A stretch of 49,327 bases of DNA from a virus (taxonomy: Duplodnaviria; Caudoviricetes): positions 1 to 49,327 of IMG/VR virus record IMGVR_UViG_3300020171_000041; one strand, 5' to 3'. Shown here piece by piece: positions 129 through 49,327 of the stretch; the first letter of the stretch is position 1, and every line of letters begins with the position of its first letter. The position numbers and the translations under genes are program-made. The notes beneath the pieces are model-generated. The model saw only the letters and a list, made by a program, of their open reading frames with translations. It did not search any database and had not been told where the DNA came from.

Positions 129-239
129 TGTTCACGTGGTGAACGACAAAGTAAATCGTTGTTCAGCGATATCAAAAGACGTGAACAACCGTATTTCGGT
201 CGCCGGGAACAAAAATACACATTACGTATTACGTGTAAC
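129..239. repeat. Left arm of degenerate subterminal inverted repeat (partner 49057-49166)
   Basis: Aligns to the reverse complement of 49057-49166: shared TGTTCA..TGAAC, ATCGTTGTTCAGC, ACGTGAACA, TTTCGG.CGCCG, AAAATACACATTACGT.TTACG.GTAAC. Confidence 0.85.
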
Positions 240-3259: not shown

Positions 3260-3490
3260 ATGAAAGATGAAATTAAGCAAATAAATGATTTGGAAAAGAT
3301 GATCTTAATCTTCATAATCATTGGTCTAATGCTCGCATCCTTCACTTTCGGCGTATATCACGAAAGGACTAATGGACGTTCACGACATGAACACCAATTA
3401 TATATGGAAAAAATCAACAAATGGGTTCCGTATGAATGGCAAAAAACCAAAGAACGGAACAAAACCTTGATTCAGAAATATAAAGGATAA
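3260..3490 (+). CDS. Small membrane protein
   Basis: Hydrophobic ILIFIIIGLMLASFTFGV. Confidence 0.65.
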   Translation: MKDEIKQINDLEKMILIFIIIGLMLASFTFGVYHERTNGRSRHEHQLYMEKINKWVPYEWQKTKERNKTLIQKYKG

Positions 3491-8988: not shown

Positions 8989-9050
8989 TTGGGAGAAACA
9001 GTATAATGGATGTTCACTTTCTGAACACCGATTAGTGAAAGATTAACCTC

Positions 9051-12739: not shown

Positions 12740-12931
12740 ATGGAATACCAAATATTAGTTGGCTCTTGTTCACACTGTCAAAAAGTATTAAATACTTGGA
12801 AACATACATATGATCTTATTATTTTGTCAACTGCATTTAATGGTGTTGGCGATCTTGCAAATGATCTGATTATTGTTTTAACAAGAACTCCAAAAGAATT
12901 TAATAAAAAAGGATTAAATGCAAATGTCTAA
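12740..12931 (+). CDS. Hypothetical protein
   Basis: GGAG RBS. Confidence 0.55.
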   Translation: MEYQILVGSCSHCQKVLNTWKHTYDLIILSTAFNGVGDLANDLIIVLTRTPKEFNKKGLNANV

Positions 12932-14387
12932 AAAATCTCATAAAATTAAAGAACTATTGATCTCAGAAATCATTGTGGATGCTAAGCCTCGTCGGGAACT
13001 TGGAGATCTTGAATCTCTCAAACAATCCATTTCCGATCAAGGCATGTTTCATGCAATCCTGGTAGATGAAAACTATGTTCTCGCCGCAGGAGAAAGGCGT
13101 TATACTGCTTGTAAAGAACTCGGTTATGAAACAATCTCTGCAAAGATAATCAAAGGTTTGTCCAAAGAAGATAAGCTTATGATCGAATGGTTGGAGAATA
13201 AAGAGAGGAAAGATTTCCTGTGGTATGAGGAGCTTGAACTCAGATATCGTCTCCACTTAATGTGGTCCTCAGACCCTAATCTTAATCCTTGGGGGTATAG
13301 GGAAACAGCAGAGAAACTTCGTTGCTCTATCGGAGGACTTTCTACTGATCTTACGCTGGCAAAAATGATGGCAAGTCTTCCTCATCTTAAGCAATACGAT
13401 ACAAAGACCAAAGCCCGGGATGCATGTAAGAAACTAATAGATGATATTAAAGCAGATGAGGCGATTCAAAAGCTCCCCGAAGAAGCCAAGCAGAAGTTGC
13501 AAGACTTGCGAGACGGGAATCTTCCTGCTATCACCAAGGCTAAAGAGGAAGTTAAGGAGCTAAAAGCTAAAGAAAAGAAAAAGAATCCATTACCCAATGC
13601 TAAGAATCCAGACGGCTCACCTGACTTAAAAGATCTAATTGACGTTCATGTGGTGAACAGCGAGAAAGCGTTTGATACCAATACAGATGTCAGAGTTAAG
13701 AAGAAGCCTGAAATTATCTATGCGATAGAACCTATTGAAACCTTTCTTCCTAAAGTTCCAGACGACTCTGTAGGTTTTGTAGAAATAGATCCTCCTTATG
13801 CAATAGATTTTAACAACACATACTGTCAGCTGAGCAACACAGAAGTTAATGCAACTGACTGGACAGTGGAAACCTTAATGAAGTTTTACAAAACACAATT
13901 ACCAATAATCTACAACAAAATGATGGATAATTCTTGGTGCCTGTGTTGGACAGGAAAAGAACATTGGAAAGAAACAAATGAGATAGCTCTTGAAGTTGGT
14001 TTCAAGATCCAGTATCCAGGGATATGGAATAAAGTCGGAGGGTCATGTAACACTCCCAAAACTACGATGATAAGTAACTATGAAACTTTCCTCTTATTCC
14101 GAAAAGGCATACCAATATTTAATGTCCCGTCTGTTCCGGCTGTCTGGAATTATTCATCTGTCCCCGCATCCAAGCGTATACACCAGTGGGAGAAACCAAT
14201 GGAGATGTATAGATATATGATGGATATCATGGGCAGGCCTGGGGCTTTCTTTCTCAGTCCATTCGCAGGTTCTGGCAACTCTATGATCGCCGCTGCAGTA
14301 AATGGTATGCTCCCTCTTGGCTGTGATACAAGTGAGAAATATCTCACTCAATTTTACTTAAGACTTGATAATTATTTTCTTGAATAG
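12918..14387 (+). CDS. ParB N-terminal domain-HTH-amino (N4/N6) DNA methyltransferase fusion
   Basis: PRR..L.SL..SI..G..ILVD..LAAGERRYTA..EN.ERKD; HTH YRETAEKLRCSIGGLS; DPPY, H..EKP, PFAGSGNS. Confidence 0.9.
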   Translation: MQMSKKSHKIKELLISEIIVDAKPRRELGDLESLKQSISDQGMFHAILVDENYVLAAGERRYTACKELGYETISAKIIKGLSKEDKLMIEWLENKERKDFLWYEELELRYRLHLMWSSDPNLNPWGYRETAEKLRCSIGGLSTDLTLAKMMASLPHLKQYDTKTKARDACKKLIDDIKADEAIQKLPEEAKQKLQDLRDGNLPAITKAKEEVKELKAKEKKKNPLPNAKNPDGSPDLKDLIDVHVVNSEKAFDTNTDVRVKKKPEIIYAIEPIETFLPKVPDDSVGFVEIDPPYAIDFNNTYCQLSNTEVNATDWTVETLMKFYKTQLPIIYNKMMDNSWCLCWTGKEHWKETNEIALEVGFKIQYPGIWNKVGGSCNTPKTTMISNYETFLLFRKGIPIFNVPSVPAVWNYSSVPASKRIHQWEKPMEMYRYMMDIMGRPGAFFLSPFAGSGNSMIAAAVNGMLPLGCDTSEKYLTQFYLRLDNYFLE

Positions 14388-14399
14388 GAGAAATAAATA

Positions 14400-14612
14400 A
14401 TGGCTGTTACTAAAAAATGCAAGCACCTTGGTGCAGTTCCTCTGGAAATCACCTTCGGAAAGCGCAAAAGAATTGAAGGAACTAATGACTGGATTACTGA
14501 TTTCTCGTCAGTAATTTCCAACTCAACTAAAGCAAGGGTTACTAAGTACTATTGCTTTTCTTGTGAAGAAGAAATTGATGTTCCATTAGAGATTATTAAA
14601 AATGAAATTTAA
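14400..14612 (+). CDS. Small putative zinc-binding protein
   Basis: AGGAG RBS; CKH..CFSC. Confidence 0.6.
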   Translation: MAVTKKCKHLGAVPLEITFGKRKRIEGTNDWITDFSSVISNSTKARVTKYYCFSCEEEIDVPLEIIKNEI

Positions 14613-15315
14613 CATACCAAAACGACTGCCGAAGGTCAGTGATTTTGATCCTTTGAAAATCGACTGTCCTCCAACAGATAATATTGTCCATGCATCCATT
14701 GCCATTGTCGGAGAATCTCCTTCATCAGTAGATGCCACAGAACGAATCCCTTTTAAAGATTCTGCTGGAAGTCAATTAAACAGAATCTTCAACCACGCTA
14801 AAGTGCCAAGATATAAGTTATATCTTACCTATGCATGTAAGGCTATGATTCCTCTTGGAAAAGATTCTAAGACTAATTATGGCAAGTTATGGACTCCCAA
14901 AGGATTCAGGTGTCCTGAATGGTATACTTTGCAAGAATCCTTAATGGCAGAGCTTGAGCATTTTAATGGAAAGTTAATCTTCTTACTCGGCAATACCCCC
15001 ATGAAACTTCTCCTCGATGATCCTCGTATAGACTTTGTGGATAAATATCATGGAAGTGTTTATCGAGCAGAAGAATTTCCGCATCTGGCCGAAAGGTTCA
15101 AAGGGAAGTTTTTCTGCATTTCATATTGTCCTTCATTCACTCTACCTCGAAACAAACCTATTAGCTTCTACACTATGTTGGGAGAGTTTCAAAAGTTTAT
15201 GGACCTTGAGGAGGATGAAGAATTATATGACAAGACAAAGGTAACCATTAAAACCAATCCTTTATTAAATGAAATCCTATCGTTTTATGCAAGAATAAAA
15301 GAAGGAGTTGCCTAA
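14602..15315 (+). CDS. Uracil-DNA glycosylase-like domain (family 4/5 fold), probable detached N-terminus of PolA
   Basis: IAIVGESP..PF..SAG.QL, LLGNTP; usual YHP appears as YCP. Confidence 0.75.
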   Translation: MKFNIPKRLPKVSDFDPLKIDCPPTDNIVHASIAIVGESPSSVDATERIPFKDSAGSQLNRIFNHAKVPRYKLYLTYACKAMIPLGKDSKTNYGKLWTPKGFRCPEWYTLQESLMAELEHFNGKLIFLLGNTPMKLLLDDPRIDFVDKYHGSVYRAEEFPHLAERFKGKFFCISYCPSFTLPRNKPISFYTMLGEFQKFMDLEEDEELYDKTKVTIKTNPLLNEILSFYARIKEGVA

Positions 15316-15779
15316 TGTATTTAGCAGAGCAAGATAAAAAAAGATTTTGGAGTAAGGCAGATGTCAGAGGTACTGATGATTGTTGGGAATGGCAAGCAAG
15401 CAAGAATAAGGTTGGTTATGGGCAGTTTTGGTTATCAGGTTATTATGAAAAAGCTCATAGGGTTGCTTTTTTTATTTCTAATGAAGGAAAACAAGTAAAA
15501 AAATTTGTTTTACATACATGTGATAATCCTTCTTGTGTAAATCCTAATCATCTTTATGAAGGTTCACAAGCAAATAATATGAATGATATGTATAGACGAA
15601 ACTCAACTACATATTCTAAAGGAAAGTTAAACGAAGAATGTGTTAAGGTTATTAAATGGATGTTAAAGTATAAATATAAAAGAGGATTAGTTAATAAATT
15701 AGCAGAGTTACATAAAGTAAGACATACTACTATAAGTGAAATTAAAAATAATCATACGTGGGCTCATATAACGATATAA
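15315..15779 (+). CDS. HNH homing endonuclease
   Basis: RFWSK..CWEW..GYG..AHRVA..VLHTCDNPSCVNPNHL.EG...NMND plus C-terminal HTH; AT-rich. Confidence 0.9.
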   Translation: MYLAEQDKKRFWSKADVRGTDDCWEWQASKNKVGYGQFWLSGYYEKAHRVAFFISNEGKQVKKFVLHTCDNPSCVNPNHLYEGSQANNMNDMYRRNSTTYSKGKLNEECVKVIKWMLKYKYKRGLVNKLAELHKVRHTTISEIKNNHTWAHITI

Positions 15780-15788
15780 GGATATCTT

Positions 15789-17627
15789 ATGAAAAAGCAT
15801 ATTGTAGCATTTGATATTGAGTCTAATCCAGTATTTATTACTTGTTTTTCCTTGGCTTTTGAAAACGATGAGGGTATTATAGAAACCATGAGTATTCCCT
15901 TAATGAATAATAAGGGAAACATGTGGACTATTGAGCAAGAAATACTTATTTGGAAAGGCTTAGCAGAAATTTTAATTAATCCGGAAATCAAGATTATCTG
16001 TCAAAACGGGATGTTTGATTTAATGTTTGTTTTACGGACAATGAATATTATTACAGACAATTTCTTCTTCGACACAATGCTCGCACAGCATTTAGTATTA
16101 ACCGATCTACCAAAGGGCTTAGACTTTCTCACTTCTGCATATACCTATTTCCCATATTATAAAGATGAAGGAAAGCAATCCCACCTCAGTGCTATTAAAA
16201 ACTGGCCACAGTATTGGGAATATAATGCAAAAGATTCTGCATATCTATTTCCAATTATGGATAAGCTCCAAGAGGAGATTGACGAACTTGGGGTGCAAGA
16301 ATTCATGGATGAACAAATGAATCTGCATAAACCATTAATGGAAATGGAATACAATGGTATTATGACAGATCAGATCGGTTTGCTCAAAGCGAAGAAGACT
16401 TATGAACGGAAGTATAATGCCATATTGCATGGACTGAAAAAAATCGTAGGCTTTGATCTAAACACAAATTCTTCAAAGCAAATGTGTGCATATTTCTATG
16501 GAATTTGTATGATAAAACCTTATGTCCAACGATCAGGGAAGGGTAAAGGAAACCCAACTTGTGGAGCTATGGCGTTGAGCAGAATAGCCAGAAAGAAAGT
16601 CAAAGGATCTGTTGAAGCCAAGATGATAATGAAGCTCCGAAAGATCGGAAAACTCCTATCTACTTATTTTATCAAAAACACTGATGATGATGATAAGTTA
16701 AGGGGAGCATACAAGATTGGTGGAGCCAACACAGGTAGGCTTAGTTCCGAGAAGACCTTCTTTGGCACTGGAGCGAACTTGCAAAACCAACCATATCTTT
16801 TTAAGAAATATCTCATTCCTGATAAGGGAAAACTTCTATGTGAATGGGACCTCCAGAAAGCAGAAGCTCATGTAGTAGCACATCTTTGTCAAGATGAAAT
16901 GATGATTCAAGCCTTTGAAGATGGAGTAGATGTTCATTCCCTCAACGCCTCTGTTATTTTTAATTGTAGTATTGAAGAAGTGAAGAATGAAAAAAGAATA
17001 CCTGGAAAATTGACGATGCGTGACATGGGAAAGAAAGTAAAACATGCATCTAACTATGGCATGGGTGCACAAACCTTTTCAGACGATCTTGCCAAGGAAG
17101 AAATCTATCTTGATTTTAGTGAATGTAAAGAACTTCTCCTGGCAAATGAACGTCAGTCACCATCATTATCTAATTGGCAGAAGCAAATAGAACAGGAAGT
17201 TGCCTCAAACAGGATTCTTTACAACCTCTTCAATCGTCCAAAGCGTTTTCTTGGTATGATGGATAGGAATCTTTTTGGTTCAGCTTATGCTTATAAACCT
17301 CAATCAACTGTTGCAGAACTTCTTAATCGTGGAAGTATTAAAATTGCCAACGATCCAATGCTTGGTCGAGGCCATTATGATATCGACCTTCTCGCCACAG
17401 TACATGATAGTGATTTAGGTCAATGGGATATTTGTAATGCAGATAGATTGGTTGAAATCTTATTAAGATTAAGAGATCACCTCACTCATACATTTACATA
17501 CAAAGGAAGGAATTTTTCCATCGGACTTGATGCAAAGATTGGCTTCCAGTGGGCAGGTAAGACAGCGGAAATCTTTCCTTTTACAAAAGAAAATTGTGAG
17601 ATAGCCTTGCATAAAATAGGAGCGTAG
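15789..17627 (+). CDS. polA: Family A DNA polymerase with 3'-5' exonuclease
   Basis: AFDIE, QNGMFD, YNAKD; TGRLSS, NLQNQP, DLQKAE, R..GKKVKHASNYG, PQSTVA, VHDS. Confidence 0.95.
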   Translation: MKKHIVAFDIESNPVFITCFSLAFENDEGIIETMSIPLMNNKGNMWTIEQEILIWKGLAEILINPEIKIICQNGMFDLMFVLRTMNIITDNFFFDTMLAQHLVLTDLPKGLDFLTSAYTYFPYYKDEGKQSHLSAIKNWPQYWEYNAKDSAYLFPIMDKLQEEIDELGVQEFMDEQMNLHKPLMEMEYNGIMTDQIGLLKAKKTYERKYNAILHGLKKIVGFDLNTNSSKQMCAYFYGICMIKPYVQRSGKGKGNPTCGAMALSRIARKKVKGSVEAKMIMKLRKIGKLLSTYFIKNTDDDDKLRGAYKIGGANTGRLSSEKTFFGTGANLQNQPYLFKKYLIPDKGKLLCEWDLQKAEAHVVAHLCQDEMMIQAFEDGVDVHSLNASVIFNCSIEEVKNEKRIPGKLTMRDMGKKVKHASNYGMGAQTFSDDLAKEEIYLDFSECKELLLANERQSPSLSNWQKQIEQEVASNRILYNLFNRPKRFLGMMDRNLFGSAYAYKPQSTVAELLNRGSIKIANDPMLGRGHYDIDLLATVHDSDLGQWDICNADRLVEILLRLRDHLTHTFTYKGRNFSIGLDAKIGFQWAGKTAEIFPFTKENCEIALHKIGA

Positions 17628-20926: not shown

Positions 20927-20969
20927 ATAATGCGTGTTCACTTTATGAACAGCCATTAGACGAAAAGAA

Positions 20970-21638: not shown

Positions 21639-24600
21639 TTATTTTAAATTAGATTTTAATCTTGACTTCCTACTTTTATCTAATCCAGAACTCAACCCAC
21701 CTTTCTTCTTTGACTCTTCATAAATCCTTCCAATAAGACTTCTCGGAATAGATTCTCCACGTCTTTGTCCTCTTGCGAACTTTGCAGCCTGGGCTGTGCC
21801 AGGAACTCCCATAGTCTTTCCAAGAATCTCTGCCAACGCAGTCATTGCTTTTTCATCTCCCATTGACGCCTTCGTAATCATATCTTCATTAAAAGTAGTC
21901 GTACCGCTTAATGCCTTTGCAATATCATCTGCATGTTTTACCAACGGACCTAAAGGATTAGACCCAAACTTTACGCTACCACCACCTGGGAAGGCTTCAG
22001 AAATTTCCTTGAGCGTCCCAAGCATTATCGCACTCGTTTGATCTCCTGCTTCAAGTCCTCTGATGATTCCTTGCACAGGAGCTGGCATAGGTGATTGAAT
22101 CCCAAGACCCTGCTCGAACAAAGAGTTAATAACTAATGCTCCAGCAACATACCTCAAGGTTCTTTTTGCAGCTTCCATTGGCCTTAACTCCGGATTCTTA
22201 ATCCCCAGAACATCCTTAGCTACAAAGTTCATATGATTAATTGTGAATGTCTGCCATTGAGTTGCCATCTTACCAATTACATTTCTTTGCACAGGAGATA
22301 ATTCCACCGCATCCCCTGAGCCCTGAGTCCTAATAACTTCTGCGTCAGCCAATCGTATTGCTTCTTTCTTACTAAGTTCTCCTTTCTTGACTAATGGTTC
22401 AAGAGAATTCCACACAGTCCTAAATGTAGCTTCTCTTGCAAAGTAATCAACACTCTTCATCAACCATGCAGATTTCTCTTTAATATTCCCTGTAACTTTT
22501 TGATACTTTGTTCCTGCAAAAGTGCTTCCCATATCCGCAACAGCCACATCCCATGCAGCGGTATTAAGAACTGAAGATTCCTTAACCGGAGCATTTCTCC
22601 TACCAATAACCGCTTCACCAATTCCTTTTGCTGTAGGACCATAACCAAACTTCACAGCTGTGGGGAATAAAGCTGTTGATTGGATTAAAGAAGTTCTAAG
22701 GTTTCCAAACAGTTGAGCCACAGTTAAATTATTCATTCCTTTATTAAGAAGTTTACTAAATACTCTTGGAACTTCCATGTTATCCAATCCGGCAATCTTG
22801 TTATTCCAGCTTGCAAGCTCAGCGGCAACATTAGGCCTCTGCTCAGCAAACACCGCAGTCTTACCAGTTTTAAAATCAGTAAGTTCCGCAGTTAATAGTT
22901 CTTTAACAAATGCGTTAATCGGACTCATATGAATATGCCGCAAGGAATCGTTTAGATATCTCGAGTATATAACTAAAGGATCTAATTCCAGCTTAACACC
23001 TTCCCGTAAACCTGTTCGCTTGATATGTGCAAATGCAGGGGAGTCTTTTATATTAGTCGCTTGTCTTTGTTTAATAGTTGCCAGATCGTCAAGAACAAGA
23101 TTACTATATCCTCCTCTTGCTTCTTCTCCTTTGATAAGATTCTTGAAGTCTGTCAGCAAAGATTCTTTGCCAAAGAAGGATAAGTAATCTCCAGTTTCTT
23201 TAATAGGACGCTTACCCAGCTTTACTCTCTGTGCATTAATGCGTTTAAAAAGATCCTGGAACTTCGGTTCAAGTTTAGTCTTAAGCTCTTTATACTTCGG
23301 ATCGGCTTTGACTTCAACCTTCATCTGTTTCATCGCATCCTTACCAAGAATAGAGAAGCTATGCCAATACGCTCCAACTTCCTCTCTGAGTTTCTTATTA
23401 GAATATTCTTTAGCAAGTTCTTCTACGTGCTTGGAGGATATTTCAAGCTCATTCTTAATGGTTGACTGAACCTCTCTTGCTTGATCAAGAAGGTTACGAA
23501 GTTTCGGATATCTATCAAACATAAATTCCGCTGGTTTAAACCAAGACCCTACACCTTTTCGTCCAGGAAGAGATTCGAATATCGCATTAGCATCGGATTC
23601 TCCAATAAGTATCTTCTTATTCCCTTTACCTTTTGTGATGTTTACTTGTCGTTCGCCAGGTTTGAGTTCAAAAGGAGTCATATCACCCTTCGATCTTTTC
23701 ACTGGCTCAAGAGCAGAGGCAATTGGATTTTCTTCTTTAACAAATTTATGAAGCTTCTCCATCGCATGAACTTCTTTTGGAGTTAGTCCAGTCTCAGAGA
23801 GAAATTCTTTAAACGTCTTCCCTTGTTTCTCAGCCATCATACCGAACTTCCGTAACTGGTTTCTTTGTGATTCAGATACTTTCATCTCAACTTCTTTTCT
23901 TCGAATCGGTATTCTTATTGAACCTCTTTCATTTCTTAATGGATTTAATAACGTATCAATAATTGTAGGTTTTTCAATAATATGAATATTCTTTGCGTCA
24001 AAAACATTAATTTCATTTGCATGAGAAATAACCTTACCTTCTATTACAGAATCATATCCAGCTTCTTTAAAAGCTTTAGTTGCCTTTATCCCATCTTCTT
24101 TATTTAAGATACTCTTTTTACCTATTGAACTCATAAGTAAATCATTATACTCTTTACTATATTTAGTCAATGGATTTTTAATATCAAAAACAGCTTCAAT
24201 AACTCTTCCTGTACCATCTCCAATTTGTGAATATAATTCTGCAGACTCTTTCTTAGTAGAAAAATAATGTCCAGCACCTGCCCAACCATGTTCTAACTTT
24301 TGAATCATCTTATTATTAAATTTTTTAAACCTTGCTGCTTGTGTTCCGTGATAACCAATAACAGGAGTGTTAGTTTCATCTTTAAATATTTTTTCTGGCC
24401 GAATGGTAATAGAACCAGATTCATTTTTTATTGGGTCAGTTAATATCTGCCAAACGCTCTTCTCTCCAGGGACTTTTTCGATCAGTTTAACTTTACTGTC
24501 TAATGAACTCATTTTATTTTTAACAGCATCAACTGTAAGTTCTTCTACTGCAAATGTTCTACCCTTCATTGGACCTTCTTGAGGAGTAAATTGATATAAT

Positions 24601-25730
24601 GGATCTTTCTTTAAAGCAGTTCTATCGAACTCTCCATCATATTTAACGCCAACTTCGTTAGCAATTTCTTCAGGAGTTTTAATATTTTTTGTAAGACCAC
24701 TAACTGGCTCTGCTCCAAGATCAGGCTTTCTCACATCACCTTCAAAGCCCTTCCCTGACTGACTGAGTTCCGATTTACTCCCTTTCAAACTTACAACTTC
24801 TTTTCCTGTAATCGGATCAATGATCTTAGGAGCTTCTGGCTTGGCAATATCTATTGCACTAAATCCCTCTGCACCATCCATTAATTGTTGATTTTTCTCC
24901 AGTCTCTCATTAATCAAAGCTTTCATTTCATTCATTTGAGTTGACTCAAGATCAGCTTCCATCTTCTTCATCAATGCATCTTGTTCTTCAAGGATCTTTA
25001 AATCCGCTGCAGCTTTCTCTTTTCCTTTTAATTTAAGAGATTCTTCTCTCATCTTCTTAATCTTACTTAACCCCGATTTAACCTTAGGAATCGTAGCAAA
25101 CAATCCGAACTCCACTCCAGTAGCCACAGCATTATGTAAGTTTGGATGCTTCTCTGGATTAATTCCTTGAGCAGTCCAATGTGCAACCTTTTGAATTGGT
25201 TCAATAACTTTCCCAACAGCTTCAAGGGATTGCTGGCCAGACTGAGATTTCGGTGTAGCCAACCCTCCCATAGTCTGAATATAATTCGCAACATTCTCAC
25301 CCATTGCTGCTTGTTGTTCAGGAGTCATACTCGGAACCAGCCCAAGACTCTGTTGGATCTTCTGTCCCGCCACAGCTCCATGACGAACGATCTGAGCAAC
25401 TGGCCAAGACAATGCTCCCCACGTAACATCACGAGCAAGTTCTACTGTTCCTTGAGCAACATCGAGAGCACCATAAAGATAATTATATTCTGGCGTATCT
25501 TTCTCCGGAATGCCTTTAGCAAGAGGATTCATCTCAGTAACAGGCTCATTACCACTTGAGACCTCTCCACTCATAGGATCTATTATCATAACAGATGGAT
25601 CAATATCTTGTTGAGTAGTATCATCCACTAATGACTGTTCAGTTGGTGAACGGGGATTAGTCAAGTCTTGTTCAGTATTTGCTCCTCCAACCTCTTGTTC
25701 AATCTTACCTGTTAATGGGTTGATAATCAT
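21639..25730 (-). CDS. Large internal virion/ejection protein with ADP-ribosyltransferase-like module
   Basis: 1363 aa, last of three ejection-type genes; YHGT..F..F..GAGHYFS..KNP..GYDSV..EINVF. Confidence 0.8.
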   Translation of the reverse strand: MIINPLTGKIEQEVGGANTEQDLTNPRSPTEQSLVDDTTQQDIDPSVMIIDPMSGEVSSGNEPVTEMNPLAKGIPEKDTPEYNYLYGALDVAQGTVELARDVTWGALSWPVAQIVRHGAVAGQKIQQSLGLVPSMTPEQQAAMGENVANYIQTMGGLATPKSQSGQQSLEAVGKVIEPIQKVAHWTAQGINPEKHPNLHNAVATGVEFGLFATIPKVKSGLSKIKKMREESLKLKGKEKAAADLKILEEQDALMKKMEADLESTQMNEMKALINERLEKNQQLMDGAEGFSAIDIAKPEAPKIIDPITGKEVVSLKGSKSELSQSGKGFEGDVRKPDLGAEPVSGLTKNIKTPEEIANEVGVKYDGEFDRTALKKDPLYQFTPQEGPMKGRTFAVEELTVDAVKNKMSSLDSKVKLIEKVPGEKSVWQILTDPIKNESGSITIRPEKIFKDETNTPVIGYHGTQAARFKKFNNKMIQKLEHGWAGAGHYFSTKKESAELYSQIGDGTGRVIEAVFDIKNPLTKYSKEYNDLLMSSIGKKSILNKEDGIKATKAFKEAGYDSVIEGKVISHANEINVFDAKNIHIIEKPTIIDTLLNPLRNERGSIRIPIRRKEVEMKVSESQRNQLRKFGMMAEKQGKTFKEFLSETGLTPKEVHAMEKLHKFVKEENPIASALEPVKRSKGDMTPFELKPGERQVNITKGKGNKKILIGESDANAIFESLPGRKGVGSWFKPAEFMFDRYPKLRNLLDQAREVQSTIKNELEISSKHVEELAKEYSNKKLREEVGAYWHSFSILGKDAMKQMKVEVKADPKYKELKTKLEPKFQDLFKRINAQRVKLGKRPIKETGDYLSFFGKESLLTDFKNLIKGEEARGGYSNLVLDDLATIKQRQATNIKDSPAFAHIKRTGLREGVKLELDPLVIYSRYLNDSLRHIHMSPINAFVKELLTAELTDFKTGKTAVFAEQRPNVAAELASWNNKIAGLDNMEVPRVFSKLLNKGMNNLTVAQLFGNLRTSLIQSTALFPTAVKFGYGPTAKGIGEAVIGRRNAPVKESSVLNTAAWDVAVADMGSTFAGTKYQKVTGNIKEKSAWLMKSVDYFAREATFRTVWNSLEPLVKKGELSKKEAIRLADAEVIRTQGSGDAVELSPVQRNVIGKMATQWQTFTINHMNFVAKDVLGIKNPELRPMEAAKRTLRYVAGALVINSLFEQGLGIQSPMPAPVQGIIRGLEAGDQTSAIMLGTLKEISEAFPGGGSVKFGSNPLGPLVKHADDIAKALSGTTTFNEDMITKASMGDEKAMTALAEILGKTMGVPGTAQAAKFARGQRRGESIPRSLIGRIYEESKKKGGLSSGLDKSRKSRLKSNLK

Positions 25731-29652: not shown

Positions 29653-32600
29653 CTAATTCCCCGCCCATGTTGCTCTTAATGTACCGTCTACGTACATATA
29701 AAAGTTAGGTGCTGACCAATTTATTTCAAGATAACTACCGCTTCTTAATCTTATTTTAGCTGCACTTCCTGTGCCAGTTCCCATAAACTGTCCCCCGCAT
29801 ACCATATTACTATCAGCTCCCATTGAACCAGTCACATTTAAATCACCTGTAAGTTTTCCTGCGCCACCTTCTGATATTGATGTTACACCAGAAAGAGCTC
29901 CGTTCATTGTTATAGAAGTAACACCAGTTACTGCACCAGCAATATCTGCAGCACCATTAATGTCTAATGATCCACCAACTACTTGTCCAGTTCCTGCAGA
30001 AAGATTCCCGCCAGTAATGGTTCCTCCAGCATTAACTGTAGTGTTTACTTGTAATGCTCCCCACACATTCAGCGGAGACGTTGATCCACTTGATCCAAGA
30101 TTAAATGTAGTTCCGTTAGGAGAGGATAATGTATTTGCTGTGGCGGTTAAGTATGGAGTTCCTCCTGCTGAAAGAGCACTGACAGTAGCTCCTGTGGAAA
30201 CTGCCGCAAAATTAATCGTTTGTTCAAACACATCCATTGTACTATCAGCGAGTAGGATTCCATAAGCTACTGTATGATCTGCAACTGTTGTGCTTACTCC
30301 AAGTTGATAAGGACAAAATGTATGAGCATAAACTCCATTGTCACTAACCACTTTTCCAGAATCAACCAAATTAGCCGCATCCCAGGCAAAGTATATCTTT
30401 GCTCCAACATCACATCCAGTGAACATAGCGGTTGTTAAATAATCTCCGCTATAACCATACTCAGGCCCAACATAAGCAGTTAATGTTTCTTGCTTATACA
30501 TCCACATCTGACTTCTTTGTACAATATCATAACTACTGTAATTAGCAACAGCTCCTGCAAACGAAGTAGTAGTTGTTCCAGCAACTACAGAAGCATAATA
30601 AGCATCGAGATCAAAGAACAATGAACTTGTTGAAAGCAATTCAACATTAAGAACATTATCATCCACTCCATTATTCGTAGCTAACCACGCAAGAACTGTA
30701 AATGCCCACCACATATGACCAAAGGAATCTATATGCCCCCAATCTACATTGCATCCAAGTCTGGCAATTTTCCATAAATCAACATGGAAGTTGTCGTCAT
30801 AGATTGCATTAAGAGCTGTAGCCACATTCCCCCACATCTGATGCTTAGCAAGATTAGTTGCTCCAACGGAAGTTCCAAGCCAGGTAGCATTATTAACCCT
30901 TACGCCTGTTTGACCTTTATAGGTTATTGTTGAATGGGAATAAGTAATTGCAGCAGTGTTTGTAAGAGCTCCAGGATATAATCCTAAAGTTGCTACATCA
31001 TGTGGATATTCGTTTATTAAAACAATTTGAGCACTCGGCAGCCCTGCTTTCAAAGCATTATAAACATCCGTACCATCCTGAATAATCTGCGCCTGAGTTC
31101 TTGTATTTGCATAAATACTATCATTAATACCAAGAGCAACAAAAACTATATCTGCTCCATGAGCTATGCATTGTTGAACCTGAGTTCTTGTTCCAGATTC
31201 ATGAGTGGTAGCGTCTGTATAAGCAAGATAAAATGTCGATCCTGCTACAGCCCAATTCTTAACATTAATATTCAATCCCATTTGATTAGTCATCTTCTTC
31301 AATTGATCTGCCCAAGTATCACGAAACGCATATGCTTGTGAGAGACTATCACCGATAATGGCAATATTAATCTCTGGAGCAGAAAATGGAGAGGAGCCAG
31401 AACCAAAGGAAGTAAAGTTTGTAGGAGTATCTTCTGTATGACTGAAGGTATTTCCCAAATCGTATACTTCAATTCCAGGACCAGACCAGGCAATTGACAT
31501 TCTACTTGAGGATACTGTATAACCTTCACTCACAGCGTTATAAAAACCATTTGATGAAAGAAGAATTTTTGTTGCCGTTGAAGGAGCACTTGTGCCAATT
31601 AAGATGTGATTAGTTACATCATTTGTAAGTCTATTAAACACACAGTTGCTAATCGAATGAGAAAGATCATATGTAGTGTTACTAAGAATAACCTGTGAAC
31701 CATAATTATTCTCAAAATAAGTGCCTATTATGTTTACTCCTGATCTTCCTTCAATACCGCCACCAGATACTTGTAGCCCAAAGTTTGCTCCTCCAGGACC
31801 TTGAGAGTAAAGATCAATACCATTACCCTCAAAAGATCCTCCATAGAAATTAACTGGAGTGCCTTCCGTAAACCACATTCCCCATTCTTTGTTTAATGCT
31901 GTCACCACATTATCAAAAATATGTGCATTAGGACCAGTAAAATAATCTCCATCTGGTGCAGACTCTACTACTCCTCTTTCAAATTTAGCCCCATAAAAAT
32001 TATATGTTAAATGACAGTTTGAAAATCTACAAGTTACAGTATCTACTCCATAGATTCCATAAGAACATTCAGCAACATAAAGTTCATCTGTGTGAACAAA
32101 AGCTGCGTCAACTAACAAAAGTCCGATTGAAGCAAAGGCTGTTGTAGAATAAAGCGACATTCCAGAAATTCTTTGATAACTGTTTACGCCAAGAGATGTA
32201 AGACTATCTCCTAACCCTTTAATTGATATAACTGCACTATCTTCTCCATGAATCTTTGTAATATGAACCCCATCACCAATGATGCTTATACGATTAAGAT
32301 TAGCATCAGCCGGGTTTATTATTTCTATTCCGTCAATGTAATAATCTCCACCTGGGATATATAAAATACCTCTTCCACCAGCCGCAGCAAGTGCTGCAAG
32401 CGCCGCATTTTTTCCAATAATATCTTGCGCCTGTCCTCCAACACCTGTACCAACTGCGCCATAGGTTTTCATATTTACAATGAACGCGTTTGGAGTGGTT
32501 AAGAGAGTGTGTTGAGCAGCAGTTAAATGGTAATACTCACTCGCTGCGCCTCCTTGCAGATTACTCAACTCAGCATGATCTCCAGGAGTAGAAGAAGTAA

Positions 32601-34116
32601 AACTAATATCAGTAACACTTGCAATTTCTGTAAAAACAACTGCGTCTTTTGCAACAATAATTTTTGCTCTAAGAACTCCCATCTCTTCTACATGGGTTGG
32701 AAGGCTTGATGGAGGTTGGGCGGCCTGGGCTTCGAGGAGTTTATAACTCCCTTGCCCATACAAGACATATGTATGAACATGCCCTCCTTTATAAACCCAA
32801 TGAACTCCATATCGAGCAACTCCAATAGCAGTTAGTCCAGTCGCAACATCATTATAATTTGCTGAATCAATTGCAGATGCGGAAGTTTCTACCCATCCAG
32901 GTGTTGCAAGATCTCCGTCATAGTAATAATACTTAAAAGTATCCGCAGCCCCTGCAGGATTGGTATCAATACCTTCGGTAATAATACGATTATTTCCAGC
33001 GTGCATAATCCCAGCAGATATGGAAATATTCAAAGTTCCAGTTTCACCAACAATTGCTCCAGATACAAAATGCAATCCTTCATCTTCAAGCTGAACTTGG
33101 TGAGATCGTTTAGCGAGATCTTCAATGCGTAATCCAGAATTTAAAATATCAATTATTGTATCTTCTTTATATACTTTTCCAAGATTGAATATTGTATGTC
33201 CATTTGCAACATTCGTAATAGTAGTCTGGAAAATAGGAGTTCCAGAATTATAATTAACAGCTATATAATTAATCGAATCGTTTGTAAGAACTAAAGTAGT
33301 TGATTCTTCAATATTGAAGAAATAATTATCTCCAATAATAGAATCGGTAGATTTGATTATCCCTTCACAGACTGAAACAGTAATTGTTCCATCGCCATCA
33401 TCTGTGATCATTCCTCCAGAAATGACTCCTGCAGATTGGATTGTATTATTCCAGTCTTGTATAGTAGTATATGCAGCAGGAAAAATATTCTCAAGTTCAA
33501 TTAAAGATTCTCCATATAACATAACAGCATTTGTACTTGGAATATTTGTTGTGCTATCAGTTATGTTTTGAGTTAATTGAGAAGCTTTTAGTTGTAAGTC
33601 ATTAGTAACATTTGGAAGAGTTTCATGTGGATTTGATCCATCAGTTATTGCTCTATGAGCATTGTTAAATACCACATCATCATGATCCTTACCATCAGAA
33701 GTTCTATGCGTATCATTTAACTCTACATGTGAATGGTCAGTCCCATCGGAACCAACATGCGTAGTATTTGTTTTAGTTGTAAGACCAAGTTCTTGCAGAA
33801 CTGCTTCTACATTAGTTCCAGTAAAATAATCTCCAGAATCAACAACAGAAACATTACCCGCAGTATTTATAACTCCCGCCTCATTAATCGTAATAATCAA
33901 AATCCATCTTTTATTCCCTGCATTAGCATCAGGCATAATAACATCAGGAGAACTTTCCATTGCGCCAGAAGTAGCACTTAGGATATAAACATAGAACGTA
34001 TCTTCATTTATAACAAAAGCTCGATAACCATCAAGGAGTTCATTCCCATCTATCCCATCAAGACTACTCTCAACTCCTCCGGTCAAAGTATTCTTATAAA
34101 AGATTTTGCTTGCCAT
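29653..34116 (-). CDS. Tailspike/fibre with pectin-lyase-like beta-helix and SGNH esterase
   Basis: VNMKTYGAVG..LYIPGGDY; IGDSLS, AVAGS, LGIND, DWGH. Confidence 0.85.
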   Translation of the reverse strand: MASKIFYKNTLTGGVESSLDGIDGNELLDGYRAFVINEDTFYVYILSATSGAMESSPDVIMPDANAGNKRWILIITINEAGVINTAGNVSVVDSGDYFTGTNVEAVLQELGLTTKTNTTHVGSDGTDHSHVELNDTHRTSDGKDHDDVVFNNAHRAITDGSNPHETLPNVTNDLQLKASQLTQNITDSTTNIPSTNAVMLYGESLIELENIFPAAYTTIQDWNNTIQSAGVISGGMITDDGDGTITVSVCEGIIKSTDSIIGDNYFFNIEESTTLVLTNDSINYIAVNYNSGTPIFQTTITNVANGHTIFNLGKVYKEDTIIDILNSGLRIEDLAKRSHQVQLEDEGLHFVSGAIVGETGTLNISISAGIMHAGNNRIITEGIDTNPAGAADTFKYYYYDGDLATPGWVETSASAIDSANYNDVATGLTAIGVARYGVHWVYKGGHVHTYVLYGQGSYKLLEAQAAQPPSSLPTHVEEMGVLRAKIIVAKDAVVFTEIASVTDISFTSSTPGDHAELSNLQGGAASEYYHLTAAQHTLLTTPNAFIVNMKTYGAVGTGVGGQAQDIIGKNAALAALAAAGGRGILYIPGGDYYIDGIEIINPADANLNRISIIGDGVHITKIHGEDSAVISIKGLGDSLTSLGVNSYQRISGMSLYSTTAFASIGLLLVDAAFVHTDELYVAECSYGIYGVDTVTCRFSNCHLTYNFYGAKFERGVVESAPDGDYFTGPNAHIFDNVVTALNKEWGMWFTEGTPVNFYGGSFEGNGIDLYSQGPGGANFGLQVSGGGIEGRSGVNIIGTYFENNYGSQVILSNTTYDLSHSISNCVFNRLTNDVTNHILIGTSAPSTATKILLSSNGFYNAVSEGYTVSSSRMSIAWSGPGIEVYDLGNTFSHTEDTPTNFTSFGSGSSPFSAPEINIAIIGDSLSQAYAFRDTWADQLKKMTNQMGLNINVKNWAVAGSTFYLAYTDATTHESGTRTQVQQCIAHGADIVFVALGINDSIYANTRTQAQIIQDGTDVYNALKAGLPSAQIVLINEYPHDVATLGLYPGALTNTAAITYSHSTITYKGQTGVRVNNATWLGTSVGATNLAKHQMWGNVATALNAIYDDNFHVDLWKIARLGCNVDWGHIDSFGHMWWAFTVLAWLATNNGVDDNVLNVELLSTSSLFFDLDAYYASVVAGTTTTSFAGAVANYSSYDIVQRSQMWMYKQETLTAYVGPEYGYSGDYLTTAMFTGCDVGAKIYFAWDAANLVDSGKVVSDNGVYAHTFCPYQLGVSTTVADHTVAYGILLADSTMDVFEQTINFAAVSTGATVSALSAGGTPYLTATANTLSSPNGTTFNLGSSGSTSPLNVWGALQVNTTVNAGGTITGGNLSAGTGQVVGGSLDINGAADIAGAVTGVTSITMNGALSGVTSISEGGAGKLTGDLNVTGSMGADSNMVCGGQFMGTGTGSAAKIRLRSGSYLEINWSAPNFYMYVDGTLRATWAGN

Positions 34117-36006: not shown

Positions 36007-36037
36007 GTTGTTCACTTTATGAACAGCGATTAGTCAG

Positions 36038-42178: not shown

Positions 42179-43792
42179 TTAGACTAATTGATAATTATTA
42201 CCAATCACATTCTCAATATCTTCATCAAGATCTTCGATTAGATCAAAAAATTCATCCTCACCATCTTCATCATCTTCACCTTCAAAGTATAAATAATTAT
42301 TATCAACTAACCAAGTAATGTATGATTCTGCATCAATTAAATCCTTAAGCTTGGACTTAGGATGCCACTTCAACTGGTTTTCTAATGCCGAGCAATTAGT
42401 TTGATTATGGTAGATGTAGCCTTGTTTGTATTGCGGTGCAAGAGCATTTGATATTCTAACATCCTTATCACCTTTAGCATTAAGTTCTATGAAGATCGGG
42501 AAGATGCTTCGAATCTTCATCTGTTGTTTTATCGGTTGGGATATGTATTCATTCAAACCAGTTACTTCAACAGCGAGGAACCGAGCACGATAGGTTAGGA
42601 CACACCTAAAGAGTTCATCATAAAATTGATCAGGACGTACCTTACCAGACCAGGGTTCTCGAATAAAGATTTTGTGTGATTTCCGATGAACCGAACAAAC
42701 AACTATGGCGGATTCAGCAGAGTGCATTTTCACTGTCTTTGCAGGATCACCAATAACAACAGTTATGAGTTCATTAATTGGGATACGTTCCACCTGTTCT
42801 AAATTCCTCCCCTGCGTGTTCATGTGGTGAACAACCTCGACTGAATTGCGTACCAAGAGATAACTTCCACGCTCTTCATAATATCTCCAAAATTCTTCTT
42901 TAAAAACTGCGTCTTTAATAGATATAGGAATGTTCATATATTCCATATAGAACAAATCAGTCTTATCTGGTCTTCCATCTATTCCACGATGATTCTCATA
43001 TTCTTGTTTAATCTCCTCTGTTGTCATGTAATTTGGATCAAAGGTATTAAAGTTTTCATCACAGATGGCAAGAACTTTATCAGGGGTGTTTACCTTCAGC
43101 CAATCAGGAGAATCAATAAGGTTTTGTAGCAACGAGTCTTGATGTTTCACAGTATCGATGTAAATGAATTCTGCTCGTTCACCAAACTTAGACTCTGACT
43201 TCATCAAATCTGAGAAGAACCAATCGGATAATTTTTGTCTCTGGTCAGGTGAACGAACTCCTTCAGTTGTTTCAAGATCGTCTATGATGAATAATCCAGG
43301 CCGATGACCCATCCAGTTCTTACCACGAACTTGCTGACCTGAGCCACGGGGCAGAACATATACATCTCCATAAGCTACCCAAGATTGCTTCGAGAATCCT
43401 TCTTTAAAGCCTTTTTCAGAAAAAGTAACCTTCCCAAACAACTTAATAATAAGTTCATTCTCAAGAAGCATACGTTTAATATGTTCTGTTTGCTCAACAG
43501 CACTTGTTTCCGAATTGGACAGATAAACTATAAAATTCGTTTCCCGAAACACAATAGCTTTAACTGTCCGGATCTTTGCAATCGTCGTCTTGCCAAGCCC
43601 ACGTGGAGCAACAGGAGCTTTCTTCTTCGCTTTCGGATGATCGATAACTTCAAACATCTTATCATGAAGAGAGTTAAATGCGCTTGTTACTTCATCAGGA
43701 AAGAATGTCTTAGCGAATAGCTTCGTAGACTTCATGCACCTAAGCAACAAGTCTTGAATTTCTGGAGGATGTTGATCGAAAAATGAAGCCAT
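42179..43792 (-). CDS. terL: Terminase large subunit
   Basis: APRGLGKTT, RG..RP..IIDDLE, EYMN.P, DPA, DLIDA. Confidence 0.92.
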   Translation of the reverse strand: MASFFDQHPPEIQDLLLRCMKSTKLFAKTFFPDEVTSAFNSLHDKMFEVIDHPKAKKKAPVAPRGLGKTTIAKIRTVKAIVFRETNFIVYLSNSETSAVEQTEHIKRMLLENELIIKLFGKVTFSEKGFKEGFSKQSWVAYGDVYVLPRGSGQQVRGKNWMGHRPGLFIIDDLETTEGVRSPDQRQKLSDWFFSDLMKSESKFGERAEFIYIDTVKHQDSLLQNLIDSPDWLKVNTPDKVLAICDENFNTFDPNYMTTEEIKQEYENHRGIDGRPDKTDLFYMEYMNIPISIKDAVFKEEFWRYYEERGSYLLVRNSVEVVHHMNTQGRNLEQVERIPINELITVVIGDPAKTVKMHSAESAIVVCSVHRKSHKIFIREPWSGKVRPDQFYDELFRCVLTYRARFLAVEVTGLNEYISQPIKQQMKIRSIFPIFIELNAKGDKDVRISNALAPQYKQGYIYHNQTNCSALENQLKWHPKSKLKDLIDAESYITWLVDNNYLYFEGEDDEDGEDEFFDLIEDLDEDIENVIGNNYQLV

Positions 43793-47091: not shown

Positions 47092-47130
47092 GGATTATTT
47101 TGTGTTTTTTAAAATTATTTTGTTGCTTTT

Positions 47131-47147
47131 TGTTCACTTTCTGAACA
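47131..47147. repeat. One copy of dispersed palindrome YGTTCA-N5-TGAACR (11 copies found)
   Basis: Copies start at 129, 3377, 9011, 13643, 20935, 25636, 36009, 42817, 47131, 49018, 49150. Confidence 0.9.
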
Positions 47148-47515
47148 GTCATATATTTTAATTTGCCCATAAGAACATGATAATACTGCTTGGAGCTTTT
47201 CGACCTGAGGCTTTATATAATAATATTCCCCTTTATAATATAACCCAGATGATGATTCTTATGATGGCTTCGTCGGAGCTTTTGATTATTTAATTTATGA
47301 AAGTATAATTTCTGATTTATGATTTGTAATGGAGCTTTTAAGTAAATTTTCTAAATGCATTCGTTATTACCCCCTATGTACGCGAATCTATTCCATCCCC
47401 CTTTTGTCTTTTGATTATATATATCGTGGGAGGTTTTGATTGATTCATATGGATAGGTGGATAAGGATGAGGATGAAGGATTATATGGATAAAAGAACAA
47501 GTATTGTTATCACCC

Positions 47516-47531
47516 TGGCACGCTTCTTGCT
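47516..47531 (+). promoter_or_regulatory. sigma54 (-24/-12) promoter motif
   Basis: TGGCACG-CTTC-TTGCT. Confidence 0.7.
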
Positions 47532-47848
47532 ATCCTTATATATACCCGTGGGATGGGGTGATTTGTCGATATTTTCCCTGAGTTCATAATTATAAACCAA
47601 TGATTGGTAATGATTTCAGATAGTTACTTAATAGTTGACATAATAAGTTCATTATTTTGAATCGGCTAAGTTGTTGAAATTGTTAAAGAAAGCCAATTAG
47701 TTTACATAACGGGTTTATTAATTTGAACTATTTTGGATGATTTATGGGGGGATTTGTTTTCCTGAAATATTCTCAGAATATCCCGATATTTATTTTTTCC
47801 ATTAATATTTGTAATAATTCCGGTTAGTTAGATTATTACGGTAATATG

Positions 47849-47864
47849 TGGCACGTGGATTGCA
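47849..47864 (+). promoter_or_regulatory. sigma54 (-24/-12) promoter motif
   Basis: TGGCACG-TGGA-TTGCA. Confidence 0.75.
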
Positions 47865-48201
47865 ATACCTTTATTCATACAAGAACGGAAGAAACGTACA
47901 AGAAGATTAAACCTTTAAAATTTTTCAAGATTTAAAATTTTATTTCGATCTTTTACATTCATAGGGATTTATCAAAAACTCAAAAACCGCCAGTAAGATT
48001 TCACAGGTTACACACGTAAGACTCGGGCCGTTAATTTTGAGGGATAATATTCCAAGAGGGGGTTAGGAAAACAGATAAAGGGATATGGCCCCCGGCAGGC
48101 GAAGCCTGCAAATCATCTTTATAATCAGGTTATTGATCCGTCCGGCAAAGCCGGTTTTGATAAGCAAATTATTTATATAAATCAAAAGGGAGAAAATAAC
48201 C

Positions 48202-49002: not shown

Positions 49003-49056
49003 TAAAAGAACAATGATTGTTCATAACGTGAACGGGAAAGTTAGGTGCGGCAAACT

Positions 49057-49166
49057 GTTACGCGTAAAACGTAATGTGTATTTTCATTGTCGGCGGCCGA
49101 AAAAGCCCTGTTCACGTGAATCTAAATAGCTGAACAACGATATGGTTTTTGTTCACGGAATGAACA
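49057..49166. repeat. Right arm of degenerate subterminal inverted repeat
   Basis: Reverse complement aligns with 129-239. Confidence 0.85.

Positions 49167-49261: not shown

Positions 49262-49327
<66 letters not shown>

Follow-up and report, generated by a model that had tools for sequence, protein, structure and literature searches.

Dispersed palindromes and their predicted reader, a ParB-HTH-methyltransferase fusion, in a family of phages

Results

Location of the ParB-methylase gene

The window, by which we mean the whole stretch of 49,327 nucleotides analysed here, is a 49.3-kb phage contig with 37% GC. Its plus-strand arm is a replication arm, with genes for a PD-(D/E)XK nuclease, a Sak4-like protein, an NAD-dependent ligase, UDG and PolA and a primase-like gene, and the terminase, portal and capsid genes are located on its minus-strand arm. 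The gene studied here (12918..14387, plus strand) encodes a protein of 489 aa that joins a ParB-CTPase domain, a helix-turn-helix (HTH), a linker and a beta-class amino-methyltransferase, and it is located in the replication module with the NAD-dependent ligase gene on one side and the UDG and PolA genes on the other. TerL is approximately 28 kb away, and the adjacency to terminase genes that characterizes ParB-terminase (Tls) methylase loci was not found for the window gene. The ParB-methylase gene is likewise located in the replication arm of OP947158. The only full-length match to the window protein in the phage collection came from Desulfofustis phage MD01, whose protein is 28% identical and whose gene order is that of the window; the host of MD01 was predicted by means of CRISPR spacers (PMC10370329). 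A search of 27 relatives gave no integrase, nor was a prophage context found: GTDB yielded four contigs, 3-46 kb long, from MAGs that carry the labels Bacteroidales, Gallionella and 'bacterium', and these are probably binned phage DNA.

Other genes of the window were recorded in passing. An HNH endonuclease gene lies between the UDG-family gene and the PolA gene (14602-17627), and since the homologous UDG/PolA family in the relatives has a median length of 828 aa, this suggests that a UDG-PolA fusion has been split here. An ORF of 1363 aa (21639-25730, minus strand) contains an ART-PolyVal ADP-ribosyltransferase domain at aa 451-583 (E 5e-14) and is possibly an injected host-takeover enzyme. 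For another ORF, of 1487 aa (29653-34116, minus strand), a match to GDSL-like hydrolases fell slightly under the cut-off; it is possibly a tail-associated esterase.

Domains of the protein

All coordinates in this section are on the plus strand. The ParB nucleotide-binding domain, at the N terminus, covers aa 11-94 (12948..13199) and was identified by Pfam (PF02195, ParB_N, E 2e-9) and by profile and fold matches. The profile of the domain matched ParB, Spo0J, Noc and KorB chains, its alignment continued through the HTH to Noc (7ng0/7nfu), and the fold of the N-terminal model matched pNOB8 ParB, Noc, ParB and KorB. The GERR motif occupies residues 58-61 (G58-E59-R60-R61) and the EN..R motif residues 93-97 (E93-N94..R97). 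The HTH at aa 127-153 (13296..13376) was supported by the profile alignment, the AlphaFold2 model and co-variation; the model places its helices at 127-134 and 138-153, and the mean pLDDT over residues 1-220 was 92. I138, at the start of the recognition helix (13329-13331), is aligned with the glutamine of GKGQSTIAN in Noc (Q158), which is equivalent to R173 of ParB. A variable, charged linker modelled with low confidence follows at approximately aa 220-262 (13575..13703); pLDDT values below 50 at 220-256 indicate disorder, and the DNA encoding it contains one palindrome.

The beta-class amino-methyltransferase domain (13776..14351) was identified by Pfam (PF01555, N6_N4_Mtase, residues 287-478, E 1e-11) and by fold, as the full model matched CcrM, M.BceJIV, M.MboIIA and M.RsrI, although identity between the window protein and solved beta-class structures is 12-22%. 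DPPY (motif IV) is located at residues 291-294 (13788-13799) and FAGSG (motif I) at 449-453 (14262-14276); motif IV precedes motif I, which is the beta order, and together with the fold this places the protein in the beta class. The architecture read from the letters in the earlier note, with intact GERR and EN..R motifs, an HTH, a charged linker and DPPY before FAGSG, was thus borne out by the Pfam domains, the motif positions and the AlphaFold2 model. The protein has the features of the ParB-CTPase superfamily, namely a ParB/Srx fold in which GxxR and the gate asparagine are present, and a homologous central HTH; the C-terminal dimerisation domain of ParB was not detected in it by Pfam.

Conservation of the fusion

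The protein search gave 219 relatives, of which the best 120 are at least 41% identical to the window protein and nearly all full length. A locus search with the single protein as query gave no matches, and alignments were required. When motifs were counted by alignment over the 118 full-length homologues among the best 120 of 219, G58, R61, E90 and N94 were invariant in both clades, DPPY was kept in 117 of 118 and FxGSG in all 118, so the methyltransferase motifs are maintained across the homologues listed. Both catalytic glutamates, E59 and E93, occur in 43 of the 118 homologues listed, and 71 have neither. A clade with genomes of 60-68 kb (G004, G006, G009, G012, G017 and G022) has GLHR, GLRR or GFRR together with SN or AN, both glutamates having gone together, and judged by these motifs it is a natural hydrolysis variant. 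Sequenced records of the glutamate-less clade nonetheless retain palindromic sites.

The fusion was intact in all 43 records examined, that is, the window and 42 relatives. Among relatives picked by their terminase, the gene was present in all seven that are at least 90% complete, and the 4 of 12 terminase-picked records without a match to the gene are 44-57% complete. Because all seven near-complete relatives have it, the ParB-methylase gene is a core gene of the family.

Palindromes in the window

The window contains 11 copies of GTTCA-N5-TGAAC, compared with zero or one copy for every other spacer length from 0 to 12 and with a mean of 0.07 copies (maximum 2) in 100 order-3 Markov resamples of the window. 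Their flanks extend the palindromes to approximately 27 bp. The cores are found at 129..145 (left contig end, within an inverted-repeat arm), 3377..3393 (in a small putative ORF, 3260-3490), 9011..9027 (intergenic), 13643..13659 (linker DNA of the ParB-methylase gene), 20935..20951 (the gap where two gene arms converge), 25636..25652 (inside the 1363-aa ORF), 36009..36025 (intergenic, downstream of the major capsid gene), 42817..42833 (inside the terminase large subunit gene), 47131..47147 (upstream of the terminase small subunit gene), 49018..49034 (near the right contig end) and 49150..49166 (right contig end, within an inverted-repeat arm).

The copy in the linker DNA, to which the earlier note had drawn attention, is present in the window, but it is not a trait of the family: it is characteristic of the subclade of the window only, being kept 701-743 nt from the gene start in 5 of 42 records. 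It is translated as DVHVVN in the window and, in another frame, as DRSLGEH, DRSKIEH or NGSTIEH in the relatives. The retention of the site in two reading frames points to selection on the DNA.

Two further parts of the window may be mentioned here. Where two arms diverge, 1.1 kb without long ORFs (47100-48200), with a palindrome at its start, is a probable promoter or packaging region. The contig ends (120-248 and 49049-49175) are imperfect inverted copies around poly-T runs, which are found at 9-32 and 49263-49327, and in each end arm there is a complete site along with a widely spaced pair, TGTTCA-N16-TGAACA. Should the contig be circular, its ends would make up a symmetric region rich in sites that surrounds a T tract and may be an origin or a genome end. 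G001, G028, G044 and G046 also have long A/T runs.

Site families in related phages

The sequence GTTCA-N3..7-TGAAC was found in 35 of 40 relatives, compared with 0-1 matches for the reversed control. A de novo search identified a family of 5-19 palindromes in 42 of the 43 records with the gene, the exception being a 24.6-kb fragment (G034); for six records, seeds were chosen by eye from the output of a cluster search. At p < 1e-3 a seed was obtained in 29 of 43 real records and in 0 of 43 null records (order-4 resamples), and clusters of at least seven sites in 33 real records compared with one null record. The half-sites are lineage-specific (TGTTCA, TGGTAA, TGGGGA, TGTCCA, ATGTGA, TCACCA, CGATCC, CGTAAT, TCTTAC and others), with at least a dozen types in the family. 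The 60-68 kb clade has a spacer shorter by one base, and an A/T-rich centre of the site is retained across lineages.

Sites every few kb had been proposed, and this is what was observed, with dispersed sites at a median density of one per 4.6 kb and a spacing that in each of the 39 records tested was more regular than random (mean CV 0.49). With a crude ATG-ORF gene model, 296 of 422 sites were intergenic compared with approximately 46 expected, and 126 were inside ORFs. A start codon was within 30 bp of 94 of the 194 sites in co-directional gaps, and divergent gaps contain 26 sites. Sigma-70 promoter and terminator signals were no more frequent in site-bearing gaps than in other gaps; as a test of a promoter link of the KorB type, this comparison bears on sigma-70 signals at the sites, with distal action and other promoter types outside it. 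The even spacing and the lack of a sigma-70 excess favour putative loading sites over operators, while the intergenic bias and the closeness to start codons mean that the sites may also have a regulatory role.

As a control, Vibrio phage MG592583 (L350), which encodes a ParB-methylase on the terminase side, was found to contain 10 dispersed TGTGA-N6-TCACA sites, a sequence that corresponds to the CRP consensus. Dispersal alone therefore proves nothing, and the argument rests on co-variation. Three named phages, MF497422 (L345), PP438425 (L344) and MW202489 (L352), have the same gene order and a distant ParB-methylase, and two of them have stated hosts, Vibrio and Microcystis. Site families are small in MF497422, with four or five CAATCG-N6-CGATTG palindromes, and in MW202489, and no clear family was found in PP438425.

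Co-variation of the HTH with the sites

The position of R173 in ParB, which is a glutamine in Noc, switches site specificity between these proteins (PMC7383237). At the equivalent residue 138 of the phage proteins, H or R occurs with G at base -6 of the half-site, Q with A, and hydrophobic or small residues with T. In a scan of 5,104 alignment columns drawn from 15 families of core proteins, among them the HTH-bearing TerS, over 39 records (after removal of G051 and G056, which are near-duplicates, and of the degenerate G029), the column of residue 138 ranked first for base -6, with a phi of 0.87 compared with 0.69 for the next column; the residue class HRQK was picked post hoc, yet it was offered to all columns. 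With G029 scored as a miss, residue 138 still ranked first, of 5,240 columns (phi 0.81). Among nine independent pairs differing in residue class, taken from a tree that FastTree built with PolA, primase, nuclease and Sak4, the base changed in the same way in seven, in the opposite way in none and was unchanged in two (p 0.016). The exceptions to the rule were G026 (R with T), G044 (H with T, and C at -5) and G029. Four other positions of the site were not led by HTH columns, whose best ranks were 79, 129, 9 and 6. Residue 164, equivalent to G201 of ParB, was considered as a second tracker of the site and failed across the wider set.

A first held-out test was underpowered, with 25 mostly partial loci of which eight gave recognisable sites; seven fitted and one, L343 (K with T, and C at -5), did not. 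Because of this miss the rule was refined, and it was fixed before new records were scanned. The second test used the first 39.95 kb of each of 17 new long records, in 16 of which the protein is 36-49% identical to the nearest earlier protein. Site families of 5-13 sites were found in all 17, and the refined rule fitted 16: G was found in both records with H or R compared with 0 of 15 others (p 0.007), C at -5 in all three records with K compared with 1 of 14 others (p 0.006), and T in 11 of the remaining 12, G087 being mixed (C/T). There was no case of Q at residue 138 among the 17. The link between the HTH and the palindromes that the earlier note had proposed has thus gained the support of 60 records, through the first-ranked column, the 7:0 pairs and the 16 of 17 new records, and we consider it very likely that the HTH reads the palindromes. 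Because base -6 is invariant in the clade of the window, the evidence for the window itself is borrowed from the family.

Sequence biases and methylation

The family under-uses CTAG, CATG, GATC, GGATCC and GAATTC, and k-mer bias gave no motif for the methylation target. As restriction palindromes are still avoided, methylation, if any, would not be a blanket cover against restriction; the persistent avoidance fits a mark of narrower purpose or the mere inheritance of host composition. The product of methylation would probably be N6-methyladenine. The accessible text of the pink-berry methylome paper (PMC9296519) contains nothing on the ParB-methylase family.

Discussion

The intact ParB motifs of the window protein, when considered with the biochemistry of ParB and KorB, make it likely that the protein is a CTP-gated clamp. 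In KorB, R117 is needed for CTP binding and N146 for hydrolysis and gate closure, while the glutamate of the P-motif matters for hydrolysis and not for binding and is dispensable, in that CTP is hydrolysed with alanine in its place (PMC11790492). We slightly favour an explanation in which the HTH binds the 11 dispersed palindromes and the protein closes on CTP, slides and methylates the phage DNA in cis. The HTH, as co-variation suggests, would dock on the phage palindromes; CTP would close the N-terminal gate at the site, and the dimer would slide as KorB does. Since no C-terminal domain of ParB was detected and beta-class enzymes need dimers (PMC7544214), the ring could be closed by a methyltransferase dimer in place of the dimerisation domain. 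With loading every 3-10 kb the 49-kb genome would be covered and the methyltransferase directed to the phage rather than the host, and newly replicated genomes would then be marked or protected, which is the least certain step. Sliding gated by CTP and a methylation that stays on phage DNA, the latter proposed in the earlier note for anti-restriction or self-marking, are compatible with the domain layout and, taken jointly, have in our estimate somewhat better than an even chance. The chance is about even that the clamp, carrying the methyltransferase, loads only at the private palindromes of the phage, so that self-specificity would lie in the loading address instead of the methylated motif, and that address and reader evolve together under a simple residue-base code throughout a large family of phages.

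Two other explanations keep some weight because of the glutamate-less clade, a phage ParB activator that works independently of NTP, and the composition of the 11 NTP binders named in section 8 of PMC12704722, none of which is an N6N4-methyltransferase fusion. According to the first, which is possible but doubtful, the protein is an organiser or regulator like KorB or Noc, in which the clamp represses or times transcription or coats replicating DNA and the methyltransferase acts independently of the sites or serves mainly as a dimerisation domain. KorB silences promoters from distant OB sites by sliding (PMC11790492), the NBS sites of Noc are scattered over the genome (PMC7383237), and an organiser could account for the 70% of sites that are intergenic, many of them by start codons and 26 in divergent gaps, as well as for the continued avoidance of restriction palindromes in the family. 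In contrast, sigma-70 promoters are not enriched in site-bearing gaps, 126 of 422 sites are in ORFs, and nearly all homologues retain the catalytic and SAM motifs, with the fusion intact in 43 of 43 records.

The second, a static tether, is improbable. Here the HTH-bound methyltransferase would modify the site or the adjoining DNA, as a switch or local mark, and the nucleotide domain would be vestigial or structural. The joint loss of both catalytic glutamates in 71 of 118 close homologues listed would be explained in this way, and so would the A/T-rich site centre kept across lineages; moreover, mutations of the NTP residues in a phage ParB-dioxygenase pair did not abolish activation (PMC13229309). 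However, the CTP-binding arginine and the gate asparagine are invariant, the lost glutamate serves hydrolysis and is replaceable by alanine in KorB (PMC11790492), and even genome-wide spacing suits coverage more than point marks.

It is very improbable that the reader of the palindromes is a host transcription factor or the HTH-bearing small terminase, with the gene encoding an ordinary orphan methyltransferase. The MG592583 control has dispersed palindromes that correspond to the CRP consensus, so that dispersal by itself is no proof of a phage reader, TerS has a weak HTH match, and no gene-less relative was found among the seven near-complete terminase-picked relatives; but the base of the site follows residue 138 over sister pairs and new records, TerS columns were among those scanned without leading at base -6, and the site within the gene persists in two reading frames. 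Hardly any weight is left for partition or episome maintenance, with the sites as centromeres of a plasmid-like prophage using host ParA: the ParB fold, an N4 variant with parS-like geometry and the lack of an integrase in 27 relatives speak for it, but the absence of ParA noted earlier held among the window ORFs scanned (most ORFs), ParA (PF13614) was found in 0 of 35 related records, a ParA-binding N-terminal peptide was found in 0 of the 120 proteins listed, only about 10 residues precede the ParB domain in the window protein, the sites are evenly dispersed instead of clustered as in a centromere, and the relative MD01 is predicted to be strictly lytic (PMC10370329). By these counts the system is not ParABS partition.

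ParB-methyltransferase fusions are common and phage-enriched and have no established logic in the available text of PMC12704722. For one family of them, specific DNA sites and a predicted code of recognition are now at hand, so that a single protein and a 27-bp oligonucleotide would suffice to test whether it depends on CTP, slides and methylates in cis only, and MF497422, PP438425 and MW202489 are possible laboratory models. If the preferred explanation, of a clamp that loads at the palindromes and methylates in cis, is true, this would be a DNA-modifying enzyme aimed at one molecule by an address and spreading, not by a motif, and possibly a tool for targeted DNA marking on a kilobase scale. 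As a natural collection of paired readers and sites, the family would also serve for the study of specificity switching of the ParB type, extending the ParB-to-Noc case.

Comparison with known systems

The closest parallels in enzyme and context are other phage fusions of ParB-CTPase and N6_N4 domains (PMC12704722), including those of ParB-terminase loci (PMC4738411), which have the same Pfam pair and are phage-enriched. Their proposed function is anti-defence or packaging-linked marking, the ParB-terminase methylase loci being predicted to mark DNA for packaging (PMC4738411), and no sites are described for them in the accessible text of these two papers. A literature search, thin on subscription papers, likewise found no cognate dispersed sites described for a ParB-methyltransferase fusion. 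Unlike these fusions, the window family has an intervening HTH of the ParB type, a place in the replication module, core status and cognate dispersed sites. The methyltransferase shares the order of motif IV before motif I, DPPY and FxGxG with CcrM, M.RsrI, M.MboIIA and M.EcoGII (PMC7544214) and differs from them in being fused to ParB-HTH. In the ParB-activated phage thymine dioxygenases a ParB fold has also been repurposed for modification of phage DNA, but in them ParB acts as an activator apart from the enzyme, lacks a DNA-binding domain and does not require its NTP residues (PMC13229309), whereas in the window protein ParB, HTH and enzyme are in one chain with predicted site specificity. 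A plasmid protein, HerB, is described in the available part of PMC13370423 as ParB-like and without a parS-like motif.

In addressing DNA, the system is more like Noc/NBS and ParB/parS, with the ParB-CTPase fold and HTH, a palindromic site, an NBS-like spread over the genome and the same specificity position (R173/Q173, I138 in the window) changing with the site (PMC7383237). It differs from them in having no ParA and no ParA-binding or membrane-binding N-terminal peptide, in the methyltransferase that replaces the C-terminal dimerisation domain, and in being phage-encoded with a site of approximately 27 bp and lineage-specific half-sites. KorB/OB of plasmid RK2 is likewise a ParB-family protein of a mobile element with its own sites; its gate residues R117 and N146 correspond to R61 and N94 of the window protein, and it tolerates the loss of the P-motif glutamate (PMC11790492). 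KorB has a ParA partner (IncC) and a lock (KorA) and represses promoters (PMC11790492), whereas the window system has no ParA and no promoter enrichment and has an enzyme fused to it. Taken together, the sequence comparisons indicate a real, family-wide reader-site system that is like Noc and KorB in how it addresses DNA and that most likely delivers a methyltransferase in cis.
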